Shown: positions 2,261-34,529 of the stretch, one piece after another | How positions within the stretch are numbered: the first letter of the stretch is position 1 | Layout: every line of letters begins with the position of its first letter | Origin: a virus | Reading direction: 5' to 3' (one strand) | Length of the DNA stretch: 39,178 bases | Virus genome (UHGV): UHGV-0034768 | Translations under genes and position numbers: made by a program | Notes under the pieces: generated by a model | What the model saw: the letters and a program-made list of their open reading frames with translations, nothing else | What the model was told of the DNA's origin: nothing | Database searches by the model: none

Positions 2261-4432
2261 ATGTTTGACCTTAAGAGTATCTGGGGTTCTGACATCGAGA
2301 CCAACGGTCTCCTTGATACAGTATCCCAGTTTCACTGTGGGGTCCTGATTAACGCCGAGTCGAATGAGACCCTTAAGTATGGGGTAGCTCCGATGGTCGG
2401 TATCGTCGGTGGCTTCAAAGAGTATGTTCATAAAGTGGAAGAGATTGCCGCATCTCCTGATGGCATGCTGGTATTCCACAACGGTATCAACTATGACGTA
2501 CCGGCTATCGACAAGCTGAAGCGTCTGTACTTTGGGAAACGTTTTAACTTCCCGAAACACAAGATGATTGATACCTTGGTGCTGGGCCGCTTGATGTATC
2601 CAAACATTAAGTTCTCAGACATGGGTGCTGTGAAAGCTGGTCGTCTGCCACCTCAGATGATGGGACGCCAGTCTCTTGAGGCTTGGGGCTATCGTCTTGG
2701 TGAGATGAAAGGTGAGTACAAGCACGATTACGTTGCCAAGTGCAAGGCTGAAGGTATCGAATATAAGGCTGGGGACGAATGGTTGTTCCCGTCTCAGGAG
2801 ATGCTGGACTATAACGTACAAGACGTTGTGGTCACACTGGCGTTGTTCAAGAAGTTCCTGACTGACAAGTATTACTTCCAGTCTGAACAGTTCGCTTTCG
2901 ACCAGATTTATGCTTTGCGTCTGGAACATGATGCTGCGTGGACCTGTGCAAAGATGGAACGTAACGGCTATCCGATGAACACCGAGATGGTCGAAGGCTT
3001 ATATCGTGAACTCACCGTCAAACGTGCAGAGTTGCTGGACAAGTTGCGTTCAACTTTCGGTAGCTGGTATGCACCGAAGGGAGGCAAGGAGTTCTTCAAG
3101 CACCCACGTACAGGCAAGGACCTTCCGAAGTATCCGCGAGTCGTGTATCCTAAGGTCGGTGGCATCTTTAAGAAGCCGAAGAACAAAGCTCAACGCTTAG
3201 GTCTTGAACCTTGTGAACGCGATACGCGAGACACGATGGAAGGAGCACCATTCACGCCAATAACTTACGTTGAGTTTAATCCGGGAAGCGGAGACCACTT
3301 AGCGAAAGTCCTGATGGAGCGTGGCTGGGAACCAGTGGACTTCACTGACACCGGGAAGCCTGTAGTCGATGACGAGACGTTAGAACACGTTAAGTTGCCA
3401 GACGCAGAGGCTCAGGCGTGCGTAGAGCTGGTCCGTGAGTATCTGGTAGTCCAGAAGCGCATAGGTCAAGCGGCTGAAGGTAAGAACGCATGGTTGAAAC
3501 TTGTAGGTCCAGACGGACGTATGCACGGTGCAATCAACCCATGCGGTGCAGTAACAGGACGTGCTACCCATAGTACACCAAACATGGCTCAGGTCCCGGC
3601 TAACGGTGCCCCATACGGTGAGACTTGCCGTGGTGCTTTCGGTGCAGCGTGGAACAAGAAGGACGGTAAGCCAGACCCTTGGATTCAAGTTGGTGTGGAT
3701 GCCTCAGGTCTTGAGCTTCGTTGTCTTGGGAACAGAGCGGCTCCGTTTGATGGTGGTGCCTATGCGAAGACTGTGGTCGAAGGTGATATACACTGGGCCA
3801 ATGCTGTCAACGCGGGTTTAGCACCTAACGTCCCACGCGATAAGTCGAACCACGACCATGAGGCTTTCCGTAACAACGCTAAGACGTTCATCTATGCGTT
3901 CCTGTATGGTGCAGGGGCCGCTAAGATTGGACTGATAGTCGGCGGTGGTAAGAAGGAAGGTTCGGCCTTGATGAAGAAATTCATTGAGGGTACACCAGCT
4001 ATCAAGGACCTGCGAGAGGCTGTGCAGAACACGCTCATCTCAGAGTCGAAGTGGGTAGATGGTGAGAACATCGTGAAATGGAAACGTCGCTGGCTGAAAG
4101 GTCTGGATGGTCGCCGCATTCACATCCGGTCGCCACACTCAGCACTGAACGCCTTACTTCAAGGTGATGGTGCGGTAGTCTGTAAGCACTGGATTGTTGA
4201 GACTGAGCGTATGCTCGAAGAGGCCGGGTATGTCCACGGCTGGGAAGGAGACTTTGCGTACATGGCATGGGTCCACGACGAATTGCAGATTGCAGCTCGG
4301 AACATGGAGATTGCCGAAGATATTCGCAGGATTGCTCAACTTGCTATGCGGAAGGTGGGTGAGTTCTATAACTTTAAATGTGTCCTTGATACCGAAGGTA
4401 AGATTGGACCAACGTGGAAGGAGTGTCACTAA
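2261..4432 (+). CDS. gp5: DNA polymerase (T7 gp5-like, family A, with 3'-5' exonuclease and thioredoxin-binding insert)
   Basis: Start set at MFDLKSIWGSDIETNGLL (aligns with T7 MIVSDIEANALL) with GGAGGA RBS; conserved blocks FHNGxxYDVPA, GAVTGRATH, KTFIYGFLYGAG, MAWVHDE; C-terminus ...GPTWKECH like T7. Confidence 0.95.
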   Translation: MFDLKSIWGSDIETNGLLDTVSQFHCGVLINAESNETLKYGVAPMVGIVGGFKEYVHKVEEIAASPDGMLVFHNGINYDVPAIDKLKRLYFGKRFNFPKHKMIDTLVLGRLMYPNIKFSDMGAVKAGRLPPQMMGRQSLEAWGYRLGEMKGEYKHDYVAKCKAEGIEYKAGDEWLFPSQEMLDYNVQDVVVTLALFKKFLTDKYYFQSEQFAFDQIYALRLEHDAAWTCAKMERNGYPMNTEMVEGLYRELTVKRAELLDKLRSTFGSWYAPKGGKEFFKHPRTGKDLPKYPRVVYPKVGGIFKKPKNKAQRLGLEPCERDTRDTMEGAPFTPITYVEFNPGSGDHLAKVLMERGWEPVDFTDTGKPVVDDETLEHVKLPDAEAQACVELVREYLVVQKRIGQAAEGKNAWLKLVGPDGRMHGAINPCGAVTGRATHSTPNMAQVPANGAPYGETCRGAFGAAWNKKDGKPDPWIQVGVDASGLELRCLGNRAAPFDGGAYAKTVVEGDIHWANAVNAGLAPNVPRDKSNHDHEAFRNNAKTFIYAFLYGAGAAKIGLIVGGGKKEGSALMKKFIEGTPAIKDLREAVQNTLISESKWVDGENIVKWKRRWLKGLDGRRIHIRSPHSALNALLQGDGAVVCKHWIVETERMLEEAGYVHGWEGDFAYMAWVHDELQIAARNMEIAEDIRRIAQLAMRKVGEFYNFKCVLDTEGKIGPTWKECH

Positions 4433-4716
4433 TGGCTATTACTAAACGTATTCGCGTGAGTTTTGATCTGAAGGTGGTTATTAGCTCAAAGGAAGAAGAG
4501 ACCATGTGTAGTCAGTTAGCGGAGATGACTAAATGCTACGCTGATGGTGAGAAGCTGGATGGACTTCAGTTGGCTCTGGTCAAAACAGCAATAGACTCAG
4601 GGCCTGAGTCTGCCCTTGAAATTGCCATCAAGAAGACCATCAAGGAGGAGCTGGTGGACGCCTTTGGTGATGACCAGTTTGGAGTATCCAACCTGCGATT
4701 CGAGGTCAAGCAATGA
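4432..4716 (+). CDS. gp5.5: gp5.5-like protein (T7 gp5.5 binds host H-NS)
   Basis: Starts MAITKRIRVSFDL resembling T7 gp5.5 MAMTKK.KVSFDV; ATG overlaps the polymerase stop. Confidence 0.7.
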   Translation: MAITKRIRVSFDLKVVISSKEEETMCSQLAEMTKCYADGEKLDGLQLALVKTAIDSGPESALEIAIKKTIKEELVDAFGDDQFGVSNLRFEVKQ

Positions 4717-4922
4717 GTGAATACTTACGGGTCCTAGCGGCCCTTAAGTCCTGCCCGAAGACCTTCCAGTCCAACTATGTGCGCAACAACGCTGCACTTG
4801 TGGCTGAGGCTGCGAGTCGTGGACATATAAGCTGCCTGTCTATGGATGGTCGTAACAACGGTGCGTGGGAGATTACTGCTGCTGGCACCAAGTTCCTGAA
4901 CCAACACGGAGGCTGTTTATGA
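4713..4922 (+). CDS. gp5.7: gp5.7-like protein
   Basis: 69 aa with near-identity to T7 gp5.7 over KSCPKTFQSNYVRNNA.LVAEAASRGHISCL. Confidence 0.85.
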   Translation: MSEYLRVLAALKSCPKTFQSNYVRNNAALVAEAASRGHISCLSMDGRNNGAWEITAAGTKFLNQHGGCL

Positions 4923-5155: not shown

Positions 5156-6011
5156 GAAGATAGCTCTGGTGCTGGATGGTGACTATCTGGTCTTCTCTTC
5201 TATGGCTGCTGCCGAGGACGAGACGGACTGGGGTGATGACATCTGGACCCTCATCTGCGACCACGAGAAAGCTCGTCGTATCCTTGAGAACACTATCGCT
5301 GAAATCGTTAAGAAGCGTAAGGCGTGGAAAGACGCTAAGATTGTGATGTGCTTCACCGACGATGAAAACTGGCGCAAGTCCATCCTGCCTACCTATAAGG
5401 CCAACCGTAAAGGTTCTCGCAAGCCTGTAGGTTACAAGAAGTTCGTAGCCGAAGTAATGGCTGACCCACGGTTCAACAGCTTCCTGCGTCCTACGCTTGA
5501 GGGTGATGACTGTATGGGCATCATCGGGACTCGACCTCAGATTGTGGGCTGTGACCATGCGGTGCTGGTGTCCTGTGATAAGGACTTCAAGACCATCCCG
5601 AACTGTGAGTTCTTCTGGTTAACCACTGGTGAAATACTTAGCCATACTACTGCCGAGGCAGACTATTGGCATATGGAGCAAACCATCAAGGGTGATACCA
5701 CTGATGGCTACGGCGGCATTCCTGGGATGGGTGAGGACACTACTCGGGCGTTCCTTGACGAGCCGTACTACTTCGTGCAGGAGAGCCGTGAGCTTAAGAC
5801 TGGCAAGAACAAAGGCCAGATTAAGACTGAGTGGAAGAAGTACCCGAAGCGTGAAGACATGACGCTGTGGGACTGCATGGTGACTCTGGCTGCTAAAGCT
5901 GGGATGACCGAGGAGGAGCTTCTGGTCCAAGCTCAGGTCGCTCGTATTTGTCGAGCATCTGACTATGACCCTAAGTCCAAGGAGGTCATCCTGTGGACAC
6001 CATCCATGTAA
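5142..6011 (+). CDS. gp6: 5'-3' exonuclease (T7 gp6-like)
   Basis: Start at MTSNKKIALVLDGDYLVF with AGGAGGA RBS; conserved PVGYKKF, CDKDFKTIPNC, TIKGDTTDGY, WDCMV..AKAGMTEE as in T7 gene 6. Confidence 0.95.
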   Translation: MTSNKKIALVLDGDYLVFSSMAAAEDETDWGDDIWTLICDHEKARRILENTIAEIVKKRKAWKDAKIVMCFTDDENWRKSILPTYKANRKGSRKPVGYKKFVAEVMADPRFNSFLRPTLEGDDCMGIIGTRPQIVGCDHAVLVSCDKDFKTIPNCEFFWLTTGEILSHTTAEADYWHMEQTIKGDTTDGYGGIPGMGEDTTRAFLDEPYYFVQESRELKTGKNKGQIKTEWKKYPKREDMTLWDCMVTLAAKAGMTEEELLVQAQVARICRASDYDPKSKEVILWTPSM

Positions 6012-6137
6012 TTTACTGGGCCGGACTTCTGGCCCTTTACTGCATGTACAAGTGGTTTGGGTCAAACAACCGTCCTAAACACTGAGTCTAACAGATAGTC
6101 ATATCCTATCAATCCTACAGTCATCCATAGGTGAAAC

Positions 6138-6160
6138 ACTAAACTATCACTATAGGGACT
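6138..6160 (+). promoter_or_regulatory. phage RNAP promoter (phi6.5 position), ACTAAACTATCACTATAGGGACT
   Basis: Full match to the window's promoter consensus; +1 G at 6155. Confidence 0.85.
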
Positions 6161-6221
6161 TTAGGACCTAAGATATGACTATAAGATAGACTTTAGTCTT
6201 AACTTAAAGAGGAGATTCAAG

Positions 6222-6494
6222 ATGGCGATTAATGCTATTGATAACGTTGTTAAGCAGTTACAGGAAGAAAGACTTGATGTCCCTAACATCTCCCAGTCTG
6301 CCATCCAGTTCCTGCACGTATTGTTCAACGCGAGCTACGCTGAGAAGATGGGAGCTATCAGTCTCCTCAAGCAGCAGGGCTACAGTGATGCGTTCATTGC
6401 CGGGTTCGTCAAGGGTCTCCAGTATTGTTCTGACACTCTCGACTCTGCGATTGCTATGCGTCGTGAGCTGAAAGATACCGTTCAGTTCGATTAA
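6222..6494 (+). CDS. gp6.5: gp6.5-like protein
   Basis: 90-aa ORF with AGAGGAG RBS, immediately downstream of a phage promoter, synteny with T7 6.5. Confidence 0.7.
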   Translation: MAINAIDNVVKQLQEERLDVPNISQSAIQFLHVLFNASYAEKMGAISLLKQQGYSDAFIAGFVKGLQYCSDTLDSAIAMRRELKDTVQFD

Positions 6495-21000: not shown

Positions 21001-21918
21001 AGTCTGACTGGCAGTAAGCGTAAGTTCGATGACCGCTGGCTGAAGACCGCTGGTATCTCTGACGAGCAGTGGAAGGGCATTAAGTCCCTAATCCGTGAGT
21101 CAGTGACTCGTGGGCCAGACGGGAAGTACATCATCAAGGATAAGAAGGCGTTCAGTCAGGACCCAAGGGCTATGGACCTGTGGCGCATGGGTGACACCAT
21201 AGCTGACGAAACGTTACTCCGTCCTCATAAGCTGTCAAACATGGACGCCAAGGCTTATGGCCCTCTCGCTAAGACTGTCCTTCAGTTTAAGAACTTCGTC
21301 ATCAAGTCCATCAATGGGCGAACCATGCGAACCTTCTACAACGCCACGAAGAACAACCGAGCGATGGACGCTGCCTTGTCCACTGTGATGTCTATGGGTC
21401 TCGCTGGTATCTACTACATGGCTCAAGCTCACGTCAAGGCTTACGCTATGCAGGATGGTCGAGACCGTGAATACCTCAAGCAAGCTCTTGACCCGACAAT
21501 GATTGGTTATGCGGCTCTGTCCCGTAGTTCACATCTGGGTGGTCCACTTGGGGTAGCTAACATTCTGGGTGGCATCGCTGGGTATGAGGACACTAAGATG
21601 CTCCGTTCGTCTATCCTACCCCGGTCGCCTACAGAGAAGCCTGAACGTGCCATCGCGTACGGTGCAACTACAAGTGGACCTGTGATGAATGTTGTTGGTA
21701 ACTTCTTGGAGCAGGTTCCAGCTTTCGGATATGCTGCTAACGTTGGCGCTTCGGCTTACAACTTGGCTGGCTACCTCAATGCTGATACTCGTGTCAACGA
21801 GCGTGACTACATGACCGGGATGTATAATACGTTCCGTGAACTGGTTCCGAACGACCCAATTACCCAGAAGCTGTTGCTTGGAACGTTTGAGGAGCAAGGT
21901 ATCCACATCAAGGACTAA
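18031..21918 (+). CDS. gp16: internal virion protein D with N-terminal lytic transglycosylase domain (T7 gp16-like)
   Basis: 1295 aa; N-terminus MATRGIRNNNPGNIR... typical of gp16 SLT domain; size and synteny. Confidence 0.9.
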   Translation: MATRGIRNNNPGNIRVSKDQWEGMTGDDGSFVVFDSPESGVRALGKNLLSYGRQGYDSIEKIINRWAPPNENDTKAYIDSVVAATGIPATQSLDLSNPDTLSSLAQAISFHETGSRYDPEVYQKGVARALNGISPKTPPVSSNVFDALTEGLKAKPKVALGENLPTAAGLNIEGQAPEAPNESFGEMFYKATGDTMQEREDRSTWFGFGAATEAEVKNSMVGMAIRAGQTEDSLDVIGDVFNPTRWNNHKWSRDELDQIRNSGVLPQYYGVITGGSPQNLTELINLALENQKLDQERAKAGTGAQLAAGVIGAGVDPLTYVPIAGQVGKGGKLINKMFTVAAQSGALSGVSEMARTSVAGGEAHVAEAILGGALFGGGMTAIADGLGRALGRNTNEFAGPATRLEARETARNVDGQDLSRMPIREGEETFSHQGVKFADVPNEPGSVRLEDGSILIGENPLNPKTRQVFDEVIEPERASAGVNLGGLTEIGLKLLRSENPEIRGVAADLVRSPTGMQSGASGKIGTTASDVFERLRAVDHRFYNDIDDAVTEALKDPYFQTAFWRDSGAFRQDIYQRVSMAIEDGSGNLKAELTPGELKVYDLLKNQFDAKREMMENPAMFGRPDAKSIFPGSRFKGTYVPHVYSKQMKELYTKELGSPEALQEAIKKSWLTSYASRPEVKKRVDEALLEADHTLTPEGLAAAVDKYANDKAYGISHTEQFERSSVMEENINGLVGLENNSFLEARNLFDSDMSIVLPNGQTFSVNNLREWDMDKIVPAYNRRVNGDIAIMAGTGKTTKEMKDLVETMMNKAGDDGKLKGEVSTLRDTLKILTGRARRDGADDAAFATVMRTMTDLSFFAKNAYMGVQNLTEIGGMLARGNVRALLHGVPMFRDLAFRNKKVGASEIKDLHNVIFGKELDDSIRPSKQDVIDRLRSYSDLGRGTATALGTAKYYTGELAVRSPFTKVLNGTTNYLLDAGRQGFLSDIVEHSLTGSKRKFDDRWLKTAGISDEQWKGIKSLIRESVTRGPDGKYIIKDKKAFSQDPRAMDLWRMGDTIADETLLRPHKLSNMDAKAYGPLAKTVLQFKNFVIKSINGRTMRTFYNATKNNRAMDAALSTVMSMGLAGIYYMAQAHVKAYAMQDGRDREYLKQALDPTMIGYAALSRSSHLGGPLGVANILGGIAGYEDTKMLRSSILPRSPTEKPERAIAYGATTSGPVMNVVGNFLEQVPAFGYAANVGASAYNLAGYLNADTRVNERDYMTGMYNTFRELVPNDPITQKLLLGTFEEQGIHIKD

Positions 21919-21936
21919 ACTATCACTATAGGAAAC
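21914..21936 (+). promoter_or_regulatory. phage RNAP promoter (phi17 position), ACTAAACTATCACTATAGGAAAC
   Basis: Consensus match; +1 G at 21931. Confidence 0.8.
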
Positions 21937-21982
21937 TGGAGGCGCTACCATAGGTCTCCGTTTAAATCACAAAGGAGGCATA

Positions 21983-24247
21983 ATGTCCACGATTACACAA
22001 TTCCCTTCAGGAAACACCAAGTACAGGATTGAGTTCGACTACCTAGCCAGAACGTTTGTTGTTGTTACGCTGGTGAATAGCTCTAACCCTACCCTAAACC
22101 GTGTACTGGAAGTTGGTCGAGATTACCGATTCCTTAATCCAACGATGATTGAGATGTTGGTTGACCAATCAGGTTTCGACATCGTTCGTATTCACCGTCA
22201 GACTGGAACTGACTTAGTGGTAGACTTCAGGAATGGCTCAGTGTTGACAGCTAGTGACCTGACCAATGCAGAGCTTCAGGCTATCCATATTGCAGAAGAA
22301 GGTCGAGACCAAACTGTTGACTTAGCGAAGGAATATGCCGATGCTGCTGGTAACTCTGCTGGAAACGCTAAGGATAGCGAGGACGAAGCACGACGAATCG
22401 CTGAGAGTATCAAGGCAGCTGGTCTAATTGGTTATATTACCCGTCGCTCCTTCGAGAAAGGCTTCAACGTTACAACATGGAACGAGGCCCTGCTATGGGA
22501 AGAGGATGGTGATTATTACCGCTGGGATGGTACGCTTCCAAAGAACGTTCCTGCTGGTTCAACTCCTGAATCATCTGGCGGTATTGGGCTGGGTGCGTGG
22601 GTTAGTGTTGGAGATGCCACATTGCGCACGGAATTAAATCTGATAACTAGATACTTTTCGACCGCTACTCAATTACCTGGAATACGAGCTAAAATAGGGC
22701 AGAGGATTATAACACTTGGTTATTACTCGGCAGGCGATGGTGGTGGTGCTGAATATATTGTAACATCAGGGGTGCCAAATCAAGACTACTCTGATGCAGG
22801 ATCGATTGCTATCTCAGATAATTCTTTCGCAAAGCTCGTCCAAAAACCACAATTTGACCTTAAACAGTTCGGAGTAAAACCATCTGACGCGTCTGCGGCA
22901 GCGGATAATGATGTATTTATCGCTCAGGCAATAATGCGTTCACGCTTCGGGTTCTGCAAAATAACTATATCTGACGTAGTATACCACAAAAAGCCTTTAG
23001 TGTTCGATTACTATAACCACATGGAAGGTAATACTATTGGCGGCGATGCAAGTTACACTCCGCGATTCCGAAAAATCGATAACACGACAAGCGGAATTGC
23101 ACCACTGGCGTACCCTAATGTCAGTGATACCGTGAACTATGATGTGGACGCTGGAATAATTTTGAAGCGACAGAATGCGGCAACGGATTATTGTCGAGGC
23201 GTTGTTTTAAAAGGCTTTCTCTTAGAGTCAATGGCGAAGTCAGCATGGGCAATTTATGCCCCCCATGCCGCAGATTTCGATATTGATATAGATAGCCGTG
23301 GGTTCAACGGTGGAATCCGTGGGAATGTTAATTTCCTTGGTAGGTACTCTGGACGCCATGTGGGGCTTGGTGAGAATGCGGTAGACCCTACGCTTGCTAT
23401 AGGTCTATGGTTTAGTCATTTCTCAACCATCCTCGACTGCGGTAATTCAGTTACTTTCCGCAATTCATTTAACGGATTCAACAGAGCCATACAGGCTGAG
23501 TATTTTGGGAACGGAATACTTGACCGTTGTACCTTCGAAAACATCAAAAAGCCGGTTGTTGGCGCCCCAACTACGTTCGGCATTAGCGCAACAAACAGTT
23601 GGTTTAGTGGTCAAATATCATGCGAGAGTTCATCAACATGTATCATACGTGCTGGCAATAACGCGAACTTCGATATTACCCTTAGTGCGGTATTTCATGT
23701 CACGCAAGATGATATTGCGGAGGGGATTATCCATGTTCTTAGCGGTGGCAGGGTTAACCTGCGCCCTTCCACAATTCTTGCTGATTTGCCAGATACAAAA
23801 ATCATTAATGATAATGGAGGTTATCTAGATATTGCTGCAAATACCAGAGCAGCAAATATTGTTTATTCCAATCATGATACTTACAGATTCAAAGACAGAA
23901 CTATTGGCTTTGGTCAGACTGCGGCAACTACAAAAACAAGTTTCTCTTCTGGTGAAGAGATTACATTTTCACTACTAAACGGAACGCCAAAGGCGAATCT
24001 ATCTGGCGGAACGATCCAGTTTAACTCTCCGGGCCTGATTAAAATCACCGTACAGGGGAGGGGTATAACATCAGGATCACTTACTTTTGGGATAAATGGG
24101 GCATCTTCAGAGAGCGTGAGTCAGGGACAGCAGGTTTCTATGGTTGTCGGAGTAACGTCCGGTGACATTCTTAACCTGAAGGCGGCCTCCTCGCTGACGT
24201 TGGGATCTGCAGGAGGGGTGCGGGTACTTCTTGAGCCTGTGTTTTAA
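21983..24247 (+). CDS. gp17: tail fibre/tailspike: T7 gp17-like N-terminal anchor fused to a probable beta-helix polysaccharide depolymerase
   Basis: N-terminal ~150 aa resembles T7 gp17 ([27 protein letters not shown]); remainder is G/S/T/N-rich with pectate-lyase-like motifs ([32 protein letters not shown]); DNA visibly AT-richer from about 22630. Confidence 0.85.
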
Positions 24248-24830: not shown

Positions 24831-24940
24831 ATCTCTTAAGTGTTAGACTCAAGGTCCTTACTATATGTAGGGGCCTTTATGGTTAACACTAACTAGTGGA
24901 GGCGACTCTACGTGAAATCTGATAAACCGGGAGGGCAACT

Positions 24941-25405
24941 ATGCTCGAATTTTTAAAGAGAGCGGCTCCGTGGTTACTTGCAGCAGTGATGTTTGCTGGT
25001 GGCTACCACACCGCTAACAATAAGTGGGAGGCTAAGGTCAATGCAGAATACACCTCGAATCTTAAGGCATCGGAAGATACAAGGCTTGCTGTCCAAGCTG
25101 AAGTCAACAAAGTGTCCAAGCGGTTTCAGGACGAAATGTCCTCGCTGGAAGGCAGCACTGATAGGATTATTGCTGACCTTCAGTCTGACAATAAGCGGCT
25201 GCGCATCCGAGTCAAACCTACGAGTGGAACCACGCAAAGTGACGGTCGATGCGTCATTGATGGTTACGCCGAACTTGACGAACGAGATGCTAAACGTCTT
25301 ATCGCCATCGGATTAAAAGGAGACTCGTGGATTAAGGCCCTTCAAGATACTGTTCGTAAACTTCAACAAGACCGGGGTAGCTATGGGAATTATAATAACA
25401 ACTGA
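24941..25405 (+). CDS. gp18.5: i-spanin Rz (T7 gp18.5-like)
   Basis: 154 aa; N-terminal TM segment; matches T7 gp18.5 (MLEFL, LEGSTDRII.DL.SDNKRLR.RVK, RDAKR, ALQDT.R.LQ). Confidence 0.9.
   Translation: MLEFLKRAAPWLLAAVMFAGGYHTANNKWEAKVNAEYTSNLKASEDTRLAVQAEVNKVSKRFQDEMSSLEGSTDRIIADLQSDNKRLRIRVKPTSGTTQSDGRCVIDGYAELDERDAKRLIAIGLKGDSWIKALQDTVRKLQQDRGSYGNYNNN
25041..25316 (+). CDS. gp18.7: o-spanin Rz1 (T7 gp18.7-like), embedded in the +1 frame of Rz
   Basis: Embedded ORF with basic N-region, hydrophobic stretch ALIGLLLTFSLTISG and lipobox Cys (LTISGC); ATG at 25041 is 100 nt into Rz, as in T7; start not certain. Confidence 0.6.
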   Translation: MQNTPRILRHRKIQGLLSKLKSTKCPSGFRTKCPRWKAALIGLLLTFSLTISGCASESNLRVEPRKVTVDASLMVTPNLTNEMLNVLSPSD

Positions 25406-26168
25406 GACAGACGTGGTGTGGCACTACACTACAGGAGACCCTAGTGGTCGAAAGAACGCATCCGGGCATCTCCAAGAAGGTACTATAGAAGTTGTGGTTC
25501 CAGAGAATGCGCTGACAGCACGCCTGTACGTGACTGGAGGTCTGACGGTAAGCAAAGACTTCACGTCTACTTTCGGCTGGCCTATAACTGTAGGTGGAGT
25601 GACCGTGGAGAGACTCTGGGTCGATTCCGATGGCGAGACAGTCCTGAGTGTCTCATCTACCACTGGTAACGGTGTAGTAAAGATTGAGTACGACTGGGAG
25701 AAGACCAGACCTATTGACCACGCTGAATACACACTAGACGTCCGTAACTGGACAGGAACTAAGGAGTGTCCCGCTGGTGTGTTCACTGAGATTGTTAGTC
25801 TTCCGTGGGTAAAAGTCATAGATGCGAACGTAGTGTCAATCACAGGGTCTACCCTCAAGTTCCCGGCTATGGATGGTCTAAGCACATTGGTCTTCGCTGT
25901 GAGACTTACTGGTACGTATCCTACCCAATCCGAGCACACATGGTCTGTCATTATTCGAAGACCTACAGGTCAGGTACTATCAGTAGTACAGGAGGCTGAC
26001 AACAAGGTATCGTTCTCCACTCGTGAGACTACTATTCACAGCTACATTGCAGACATAGACGACCCGTTCGTGACCTCTGGTGTGGTGATTGGTGTGGAGA
26101 ATACCTCATCTCAGGCCCTGACTTTAACAGCCATAACGTTGCGTATAGAGCGCATATTTAACGTATAA
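25383..26168 (+). CDS. hypothetical 261-aa beta-rich protein inserted between the lysis cassette and terminase large subunit
   Basis: Long ORF with T/V/S/G-rich composition; overlaps the Rz end by 23 nt; no counterpart in T7 where gene 19 follows 18.5 directly; function unknown. Confidence 0.7.
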   Translation: MGIIITTETDVVWHYTTGDPSGRKNASGHLQEGTIEVVVPENALTARLYVTGGLTVSKDFTSTFGWPITVGGVTVERLWVDSDGETVLSVSSTTGNGVVKIEYDWEKTRPIDHAEYTLDVRNWTGTKECPAGVFTEIVSLPWVKVIDANVVSITGSTLKFPAMDGLSTLVFAVRLTGTYPTQSEHTWSVIIRRPTGQVLSVVQEADNKVSFSTRETTIHSYIADIDDPFVTSGVVIGVENTSSQALTLTAITLRIERIFNV

Positions 26169-26180
26169 GGAGGTGACGCA

Positions 26181-27944
26181 TTGAGTAAAGACTTAGTGGC
26201 GCGTCAGGCGCTAATGACTGCCCGTATGAAGGCAGACTTCGTGTTCTTCCTGTTCGTCCTGTGGAAAGCTCTGTCACTCCCAGTCCCGACTCGCTGTCAG
26301 ATTGACATGGCGAAGAAACTATCGGCTGGGGACAACAGGCGTTTCATCCTACAGGCGTTCCGTGGTATCGGGAAGTCCTTCATTACGTGTGCCTTCGTGG
26401 TATGGAAACTATGGAACAACCCAGACTTGAAGTTCATGATTGTGTCGGCCTCAAAGGAGCGAGCCGATGCTAACTCCATCTTCATCAAGCGCATCATCGA
26501 CCTCATGCCTCAGCTTCAGGAACTCAAACCTAAGCAGGGACAGCGAGATGCGGTTATCAGCTTCGACGTTGGACCAGCCAAGCCAGACCACTCACCCTCG
26601 GTTAAGTCCGTTGGTATCACTGGTCAGTTGACTGGTAGTCGTGCTGACATCCTGATTGCCGATGACGTGGAGGTTCCTAACAACTCTGCGACTCAGGCTG
26701 CGCGAGATCGACTTTCAGAGCTTGTGAAAGAGTTCGACGCTATCCTGAAGCCGGGAGGTACAATCATCTATCTGGGTACTCCTCAGAACGAGATGACCCT
26801 ATATCGTGAGCTGGAAGGCCGTGGGTACACCACTACTATCTGGCCAGCTCGTTATCCACGCGACAGGAAAGACTGGCAGTCTTACGGCGACCGTCTGGCA
26901 CCGATGCTTCAGGCAGAGCTAGAAGAGGACCCTGAGTCATTCTACTGGCGTCCTACCGATGAGGTACGATTCGATGATACGGACCTGAAGGAACGTGAGC
27001 TATCCTATGGTAAAGCTGGCTTCGCTCTACAGTTCATGCTTAACCCGAACCTGAGTGATGCTGAGAAGTACCCTCTGAAGCTCCGTGACCTTATCGTAGC
27101 AGACTTGGACCCAGCGTCCAGCCCAATGGTATACCAATGGTTGCCAAACCCTCAGAACAAGCGTGAGGACGTTCCTAACGTTGGACTCATGGGTGACTCA
27201 TACCACACGTATCAGACTGTAGGTTCTGCCTTCAGCTCATACACCCAGAAGATTCTGGTCATTGACCCTAGTGGTCGTGGTAAGGATGAAACTGGATATG
27301 CGGTACTGTATCAACTCAACGGCTACATCTTCGCTATGGAAGTTGGTGGTATGCGTGGAGGGTATGAAGACTCTACGCTGGAAGCATTGGCTAAGATTGG
27401 TCGTAAGTGGAAGGTCAACGAATACGTCATTGAGGGTAACTTCGGTGATGGTATGTACCTTGAGCTATTCAAGCCTGTAGCGGCCCGTATCCATCCTGCG
27501 GCTGTAACTGAAGTGAAGAGTAAGGGTCAGAAAGAACTCCGCATCTGTGACGTTCTGGAGCCTATCATGGGGTCTCACAGACTTATTGTTAACGCTGCTG
27601 CTATCGTCCAAGACTACCAGACAGCTGCCGACAAGGATGGTGTGCGTAACCCTATCTACTCTCTCTTCTACCAGATGACCCGTATCTCTCGTGAACGTGG
27701 AGCCTTGGCACACGATGACAGACTTGATGCGCTGGCTATAGGTGTACAGTTCTTCGTTGAGTCTATGGCTAAGGATGCCAACAAAGGTGAACGTGAAGTC
27801 ACTGAGGAGTGGCTTGAGGAACAGATGGAGAACCCACGGAAAGGCTTCGAGTCCATCCACACTGAGTTCTGGGACAATGGGGTCCGGGTAACTCACGATA
27901 CGGACGACGAGCTGGGACTAGGGTCATACGTTACGTTCCACTAG
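26181..27944 (+). CDS. gp19: terminase large subunit (T7 gp19-like)
   Basis: 587 aa; TTG start with AAGGAGGTGA RBS; blocks [68 protein letters not shown] match T7 gp19. Confidence 0.95.
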
Positions 27945-33973: not shown

Positions 33974-34453
33974 ATGTTCGGTAAGTCAAAACTTAAAGCA
34001 CAAATCAAAGAGTTGAGCATGAAGGTGGCATACTTGGAGCGAGTCGTAACGGTCCGGGATAAGGACAACGAGAGGCTGAAGGTTAAACTTGCTGAATCAG
34101 AGCGTAAGCGCCTGACACCACCAGCGGCTGTAACTGTCAAGCGTATGGTAGGCATCAAGTTCAAGGCACTGTTCAACGGGCTGTACCAACCGACTGAGTT
34201 CAAGACAGGGCCTGGTAGCTGCGGGAAGAACGTTAAGCATTTCACCATATCGAAGACTGAACGCACCATTACCATCCACCAGCACCACGTAGACGGGTCT
34301 CAGAAAGACTTTGAGTACCGACTGAGCGACATCGATGGTCGCATCCAGTATGACTACGAGCGGGTTAAGGTCTATGGCGAGGAGGCAGAGCAGGAACGTA
34401 TAGTACAAGCCTTACGCAACAGACAACGATTATACCCTAAACTATCACTATAG
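33974..34453 (+). CDS. hypothetical protein (159 aa; N-terminal heptad-like helical region)
   Basis: ORF with GAAGAGG RBS; no T7 counterpart between gene 1 and gene 1.1; function unknown. Confidence 0.6.
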   Translation: MFGKSKLKAQIKELSMKVAYLERVVTVRDKDNERLKVKLAESERKRLTPPAAVTVKRMVGIKFKALFNGLYQPTEFKTGPGSCGKNVKHFTISKTERTITIHQHHVDGSQKDFEYRLSDIDGRIQYDYERVKVYGEEAEQERIVQALRNRQRLYPKLSL

Positions 34454-34458
34454 GATTA
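34436..34458 (+). promoter_or_regulatory. phage RNAP promoter (phi1.1 position), CCTAAACTATCACTATAGGATTA
   Basis: Consensus match; +1 G at 34453; overlaps the stop of the upstream ORF. Confidence 0.8.
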
Positions 34459-34529
34459 GACTCAAGGTCATGACTCAAAGTCGTGGCCTTCATGATTAAC
34501 CCTATAACCTAAACAACTGGAGCTACAAC

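Follow-up and report, generated by a model that had tools for sequence, protein, structure and literature searches.

The junction between the lysis and packaging genes of a K1F-like phage genome was found to carry an accessory gene, ORF261, whose product ends in a predicted TNF-like knob domain. ORF261 is a real gene and not a chance open reading frame, since protein homologues occupy the same site in the phages EPr2, CLB_P1 and P762, comparison with the EPr2 copy gives a dN/dS of 0.41, the product matches the protein family PHROG 17779, and the C-terminal half of the protein is modelled confidently by AlphaFold. On balance, we lean towards the view that ORF261 encodes a late-expressed, dispensable, trimeric knob or adhesin of the virion surface, which would be attached to the particle and bind a ligand there.

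The stretch of DNA analyzed (hereafter the window; 39,178 nucleotides) is a complete phage genome, circularly permuted and of the K1F-like T7 type (genus Kayfunavirus), with the usual gene order and phage promoter family. ORF261 lies between the spanin genes (Rz/Rz1) and the gene for the terminase large subunit (TerL) and overlaps the Rz stop codon; both its coordinates and its neighbours agree with those given in an earlier note on this DNA (Table 1). Its end is separated from the TTG start codon of TerL by a gap of 12 nt, and from the TerL Shine-Dalgarno sequence onward the 3′ junction is identical across all relatives. The N-terminus of the product (MGIIITTETDVVWHY) contains, by inspection, no hydrophobic stretch resembling a signal peptide, and the protein has neither a signal peptide nor a transmembrane segment. 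A 175-aa ORF runs antisense wholly within ORF261 (window 25424-25951, minus strand). It is most likely spurious: nothing supports it, and transcription in T7-type genomes uses a single strand.

Table 1 Features in and around ORF261 (positions refer to the window)
Feature	Position	Strand	Remarks
ORF261, accessory late gene	25383..26168	+	ATG start, 261 aa plus stop, TAA 26166-26168
N-terminal domain of ORF261, aa 1-115, beta-rich, orphan	25383..25727	+	candidate anchor in first 40 aa
C-terminal TNF/C1q-like jelly-roll knob domain of ORF261, aa 116-261	25728..26165	+	predicted; confident AlphaFold model
Rz i-spanin gp18.5, upstream neighbour	24941..25405	+	from ORF listing and annotation of K1F, CLB_P1 and EcoDS1
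Rz1 o-spanin	~25041-25316	+	embedded within Rz
Translational coupling region	25373..25405	+	weak Shine-Dalgarno CGGGGT 25373-25378; ATG 25383, 23 nt inside the 3′ end of Rz (23-nt overlap); read from sequence
gp19 terminase large subunit (TerL), downstream neighbour	TTG 26181..27944	+	region including Shine-Dalgarno from 26167
TerL Shine-Dalgarno AAGGAGGTGA	26167-26176	+	overlaps ORF261 stop codon
Nearest upstream phage promoter, phi17-type ACTAAACTATCACTATAGG	21914..21945	+	promoter repeat family
Copies of the phage promoter family	226, 6138, 8958, 9957, 14638, 21914, 28039, ~30899, 34436, 36141, 37017		
Stable hairpin upstream of Rz (repeat D7)	24839..24890	+	fold energy -25.3 kcal/mol, z = -3.4

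The phage RNA-polymerase promoter family (core CTAAACTATCACTATAGG) is represented by 10-11 copies in the window. A repeat search detected no copy between the promoter before gene 17 and the one after gene 19 (positions 21914 and 28039), which places ORF261 in the late transcript of genes 17-19. With this layout, ORF261 would be transcribed together with these genes from the phi17-type late promoter, and its translation would be coupled to that of Rz. The hairpin upstream of Rz shares a core (TTAGACTCAAGGTC) with a second, related hairpin (34449-34506, z = -5.0). By analogy with T7, both are likely RNase III processing sites; the one upstream of Rz is a candidate equivalent of T7 R18.5 and would, as such, set the 5′ end of an 18.5-ORF261-19 mRNA.

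The AlphaFold model of the ORF261 monomer is all-beta, consistent with the beta-rich product described in the earlier note, and the prediction is confident for the C-terminal half. According to this model, residues 116-261 are a member of the TNF-like superfamily (as delimited in ECOD), i.e. they form a beta jelly roll of ~130-150 residues that can be superposed on the structures of TNF, C1q or phage knobs. Folds of this type are seen at the tips of phage fibres, and the close structural matches of the domain are all trimeric; by analogy, we infer that ORF261 forms a homotrimer. Foldseek matches among predicted viral structures (BFVD) were dominated by C1q-domain, collagen and tail-fibre proteins.

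At the level of sequence profiles, ORF261 matched PHROG 17779, a family of unknown function (E = 2e-22, aa 113-260 on profile positions 54-206 of 208). No match was obtained in Pfam or NCBIfam, including their catalytic families; a PDB sequence search with the ORF261 protein returned nothing credible, and a word-indexed homologue search with the single sequence found only ORF261 itself. The PADLOC defence HMMs gave no match at E <= 1, in a collection that omits anti-defence and exclusion proteins. The profile search and fold comparison proposed in the earlier note thus led to a family and to a TNF-like knob fold, and its statement that the protein has no signal peptide (by inspection) and no catalytic motif (Pfam, NCBIfam) was upheld. 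Membership in the Sf6 knob family was considered and, at sequence level, rejected: ORF261 has no PF16532 match at E <= 10, whereas Sf6 gp9 scores 8.7e-119, and hhalign of the knob-family alignment gave a probability of 0.2% for a relation to Sf6 gp9.

The knob domain is found in at least five other phage groups, behind differing N-termini and always near structural genes; head, decoration or tail-fibre genes are among its neighbours in each lineage that was examined. The segments leading up to the knob comprise (i) a gp45-type segment in N4-like phages, (ii) collagen repeats in Aeromonas phages, and (iii) short leaders in head-gene modules. The N4-like homologues (Ithacavirus, Gamaleyavirus) are 204-225 aa long, with 27-32% identity in the knob (gp46 of Shigella phage B2 included), and over their first ~45 aa they share homology with the N-terminal end of B2 gp45, a homotrimer of 99-aa chains that decorates the capsid and whose structure was determined by cryo-EM (PDB 9D82; PMC11654681). 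B2 gp45 and gp46 are 49% identical over their N-terminal 44-45 residues (E = 1e-14), and a profile of the N4-like homologues compared with the whole PDB matched solely residues 1-49 of gp45 (E = 7e-6).

In Ithacavirus, the knob gene adjoins the decoration gene (Dec, gp45), and the two are adjacent in B2 (gp45 at locus positions 5456-5755, gp46 at 5833-6468). The C-termini of the two B2 proteins differ, gp45 having a phi29 head-fibre-like tail and gp46 a TNF-like knob. The sequence relationship suggests that they are alternative heads on a single capsid anchor; gp46 is unmentioned in the B2 structural paper (PMC11654681). In Gamaleyavirus, the knob gene adjoins the tailspikes, in the Aeromonas phage ZPAH14 (Chaseviridae) it follows three tail-fibre genes, and in AS2 it follows a tailspike gene. 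Collagen G-X-Y repeats immediately precede the knob in ZPAH14 and in a metagenomic relative (P0037), an arrangement that would fit a trimeric knob. The Klebsiella phage S16c, of the T7 supergroup, carries the knob gene after the terminase gene and next to an Ig-domain, Hoc-like gene. This gene (locus positions 4185-4721), directly upstream of the knob homologue, encodes an Ig-domain protein matching Hoc-like head decoration PHROGs, so that two putative surface-display genes stand side by side after the terminase gene. A literature search returned no paper in which TNF-like knobs are connected with capsid decoration.

Database labels ('putative protease', 'protease') assign a different function to CLB_P1 gp18.8 and to several N4-like and Aeromonas homologues. 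Apart from these labels, the evidence speaks against a protease: no peptidase domain, motif or family was detected in Pfam or NCBIfam for ORF261, CLB_P1 gp18.8 or six other homologues, and the domain in question is a confidently predicted TNF-like jelly roll. In Uetakevirus (PAT1) and the Aeromonas phage Gekk3-15, the knob gene lies between the portal gene and a prohead protease/maturation gene, and the real protease is this neighbour (phrog_458 protease, 1.5e-99). The label was probably seeded by this position and then propagated. We therefore give almost no credence to proteolytic activity of ORF261.

In contrast to the knob, the N-terminal domain (aa 1-115) is restricted to five Kayfunavirus records and was absent from IMG/VR in a scan of that collection. 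HMMER, run exhaustively against 1.84 billion representatives, returned only weak, multi-stretch, repeat-like matches to repetitive bacterial proteins, which were judged to be compositional and were rejected as homologues. A PDB sequence search with the N-terminal alignment yielded nothing credible, and the domain showed no similarity to B2 gp45, gp17, CLB_P1 gp17.1 or other proteins of the genome. AlphaFold predicts it as all-beta and without helix, at a confidence below 50; the model suggests a beta sandwich at most, in a prediction too unreliable for a fold assignment. Relative to CLB_P1, aa 1-40 are the best-conserved part of the protein (70-75% identity) despite saturated synonymous change. 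Everything beyond aa 40 is 25-50% identical, and aa 41-100 are the most variable (25-35%). Judged by sequence, this distribution of conservation resembles that of a virion-anchored, host-facing protein.

The Rz/TerL junction itself is variable within the genus. In K1F it is empty, the TTG of TerL directly overlapping the Rz stop codon, and the present phage carries ~790 bp more, which corresponds to the extra ORF of ~800 bp described in the earlier note. Most of 417 related phage records lack ORF261, their alignments missing ~800 bp; among the 30 of these records that were listed, query coverage was 70% in all but three. The gene is thus variable among close relatives, as had been anticipated. 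Besides the present phage, only four of the 417 records, all Kayfunavirus, are carriers: (i) Providencia phage EPr2, with 94.6% aa identity to ORF261; (ii) Escherichia phage CLB_P1, whose gp18.8 is 47.7% identical; (iii) Escherichia phage P762 (45.2%), with the gene at the same junction in all three; and (iv) Bas105, in which a knob remnant of 140 aa with an in-frame deletion (locus positions 1002-1424) is accompanied by an unrelated 56-aa ORF (junction span 1002-1607). The EPr2 gene (EPr2_0060) is annotated as hypothetical from an internal start codon (207 aa, locus positions 2735-3358); the full 261-aa frame is intact, starts at locus position 2573 and overlaps Rz. The EPr2 paper says nothing about this orthologue.

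The junction (window 25330-26260) is an insertion/deletion hot spot in Kayfunavirus; in EcoDS1, for example, it holds an unrelated 53-aa ORF (locus positions 2576-2737). Many truncated or internally deleted knob genes (94-101 aa) are also seen in N4-like contigs of ~72 kb (P0041-P0053). In one of these (P0048), the extreme N-terminus is retained and fused in frame to the final ~84 residues, much as in the remnant of Bas105. No nucleotide-level match was obtained for E. coli prophage relatives.

Alleles of the ORF261 and CLB_P1 types are only ~47% identical at the amino acid level, yet full length and domain order are kept. Over the first 120 nt the two are 62.5% identical, compared with 97% for the adjacent TerL DNA, and by this measure the alleles are ancient relative to the phage backbones. 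The first 40 codons differ by 19 synonymous and 11 nonsynonymous changes, which, together with the kept architecture, points to long-term purifying selection. Allele divergence, the dN/dS against EPr2 and the sporadic distribution, all read from sequence, thus indicate a real gene that the genus can do without, that is kept by purifying selection and that is exchanged horizontally. ORF261 is an old, exchangeable cassette, and phages have acquired, swapped and lost it at the junction between Rz and TerL.

The same distribution could be explained by a passenger, i.e. a horizontally acquired knob cassette without current function that a permissive junction tolerates and that is being lost. The small number of carriers, the reduction of the gene to an in-frame remnant in Bas105, the frequency of truncated or internally deleted copies in the N4-like contigs and the presence of unrelated small ORFs at the junction would all fit such an explanation. 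We nevertheless regard it as improbable, because four phages keep an intact reading frame, the comparison with EPr2 gives a dN/dS of 0.41, and alleles as divergent as those described above have retained their length and domain order and show more synonymous than nonsynonymous changes in the first 40 codons.

Evidence bearing on virion association comes from the relatives. In particle proteomics of the four UE Gamaleyaviruses, a 'G-9 protein' was listed for every phage among the receptor-binding proteins associated with particles (PMC11927229), and this protein would be the knob homologue, which is annotated as 'tail needle knob' in UE-M3. Detection in these proteomes is weakly specific, since they comprise 44-56 proteins, including lysis and replication enzymes (PMC11927229). 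The mass-spectrometry table of the B2 virion lists gp45 and not the knob homologue gp46 (PMC11654681). With an HMM of the N4-like N-termini and gp45, the gp45-like segment was found in the N4-like homologues only and not in ORF261.

The absence of gp46 from the B2 table and of a recognisable virion anchor from the N-terminal domain of ORF261 would also be expected of a non-structural late protein. Such a protein could be a soluble, trimeric, lectin-like factor that is released at lysis, or acts at the envelope while lysis proceeds, and that binds structures of the host surface; it might mask receptors on neighbouring cells or debris (exclusion or anti-adsorption) or aid lysis. Gene position agrees with this explanation as well, as the lysis cassette directly adjoins the knob gene both here and in N4-like phages, and endolysin genes are close by in ZPAH14. 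However, a product with neither signal peptide nor transmembrane segment would reach the cell surface only after lysis, the PADLOC search was negative, and in the relatives the knob stands behind a decoration-protein N-terminus or a collagen stalk, in genes that belong to head or tail-fibre modules. We consider a non-structural role unlikely.

A virion-surface knob remains the reading we prefer. It is favoured by the knob fold, the gp45-type N-terminus of the N4-like relatives, the collagen repeats of the Aeromonas relative and the structural genes that neighbour the knob gene. The conservation pattern of ORF261, its place in a late transcription unit and the listing of the G-9 protein in particles also speak for it. 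Among the roles listed in the earlier note, decoration or auxiliary receptor binding is accordingly the part that gained ground from fold, N-termini of relatives and gene context, whereas exclusion or anti-defence received no specific support. In this preferred reading, aa 116-261 form the confidently modelled TNF/C1q-like jelly roll, which would trimerize, and aa 1-115, notably their well-conserved first 40 residues, would fix the knob to the particle, either on the capsid or on the tail. The exposed knob may then bind a surface ligand, e.g. a glycan or an outer-membrane component, and would aid adsorption or retention, leaving primary host range to the gp17 tailspike.

A serotype-specific role of the knob in receptor recognition is disfavoured by several observations. 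ORF261 is 94.6% identical to the EPr2 copy although the distal parts of the two tailspikes are unrelated. Swapping of Sf6-type knobs left host specificity unchanged (PMC3741392). A docking peptide shared with a second receptor-binding protein, as would be expected of a secondary tailspike docked on gp17 in branched complexes of the K1-5, KP32 or CLB_P1 type, was rejected, as CLB_P1 gp17.1 and gp18.8 show no similarity to each other and no other protein of the window shows any to ORF261. Nor does the major capsid protein co-vary with ORF261 carriage, being 97-99.7% identical in carriers and non-carriers, an identity too high to be informative. The gp17 tailspike (window 21983-24247, 754 aa) shares only its first ~650 nt with other Kayfunaviruses and contains a Tail_spike_N domain (TSP1/gp66-type) at aa 155-211. 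A megablast search of 50,697 phage records returned nothing for its distal part, which also has no relationship to the tailspike of EPr2.

A bolder proposal, to which we assign a rather low probability, is that ORF261 is the first head-fibre or capsid-decoration protein of a coliphage of the Studiervirinae, and that PHROG 17779 is a cross-family plug-in lectin knob mounted on lineage-specific anchors. These anchors would be the gp45-type N-terminus in N4-like phages, collagen stalks in Chaseviridae and the orphan beta domain in Kayfunavirus, and the purpose of the arrangement would be tailspike-independent adhesion to host or mucosal glycans.

K1F-like phages are in therapeutic and model use, and the canonical set of T7 proteins is assumed to make up their virions. 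If ORF261 is indeed an optional surface knob, these phages would possess a second, tailspike-independent determinant for binding to the host or the environment, with possible effects on adsorption, mucosal retention, immunogenicity and the engineering of display sites. Genes of the ORF261 type are already public (EPr2, CLB_P1, P762), where they are uncharacterised (hypothetical) or mislabelled ('putative protease'); the propagated protease annotation is corrected here. PHROG 17779, which is represented in at least five lineages of phages, gains a fold and a testable role, as well as a link to a solved capsid decoration protein through its N4-like members.

The known systems nearest to ORF261 include its Kayfunavirus counterparts. 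CLB_P1 gp18.8, the P762 protein and EPr2_0060 are true orthologues or alleles, sharing both position and two-domain architecture. To our knowledge, T7-type tails have no needle. The tail-needle knob of the Sf6/HS1 type (gp9 C-terminal domain, PDB 3RWN/4K6B, PF16532) has no sequence relationship to ORF261. It is carried on a gp26-like trimeric coiled-coil needle shaft that plugs the tail, whereas the N-terminal domain of ORF261 is predicted to be all-beta and matches no coiled-coil or needle family. In the Sf6 knob, the residues binding L-glutamate (E146, K200, S248 and D250) are located at the subunit interfaces (PMC3741392). Knobs of the PRD1 P5, Bacillus BclA, C1q and adenovirus types are trimers on collagen or other stalks; ORF261 would work like these knob tips and that of Sf6 gp9, but where they have a stalk its N-terminal part is a globular, beta-rich domain. 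The knob domain of ORF261 recurs in B2 gp46 and further N4-like homologues, and their architecture provides a precedent for a knob on a capsid-decoration module, although the N-terminal domain of ORF261 is unrelated to gp45.
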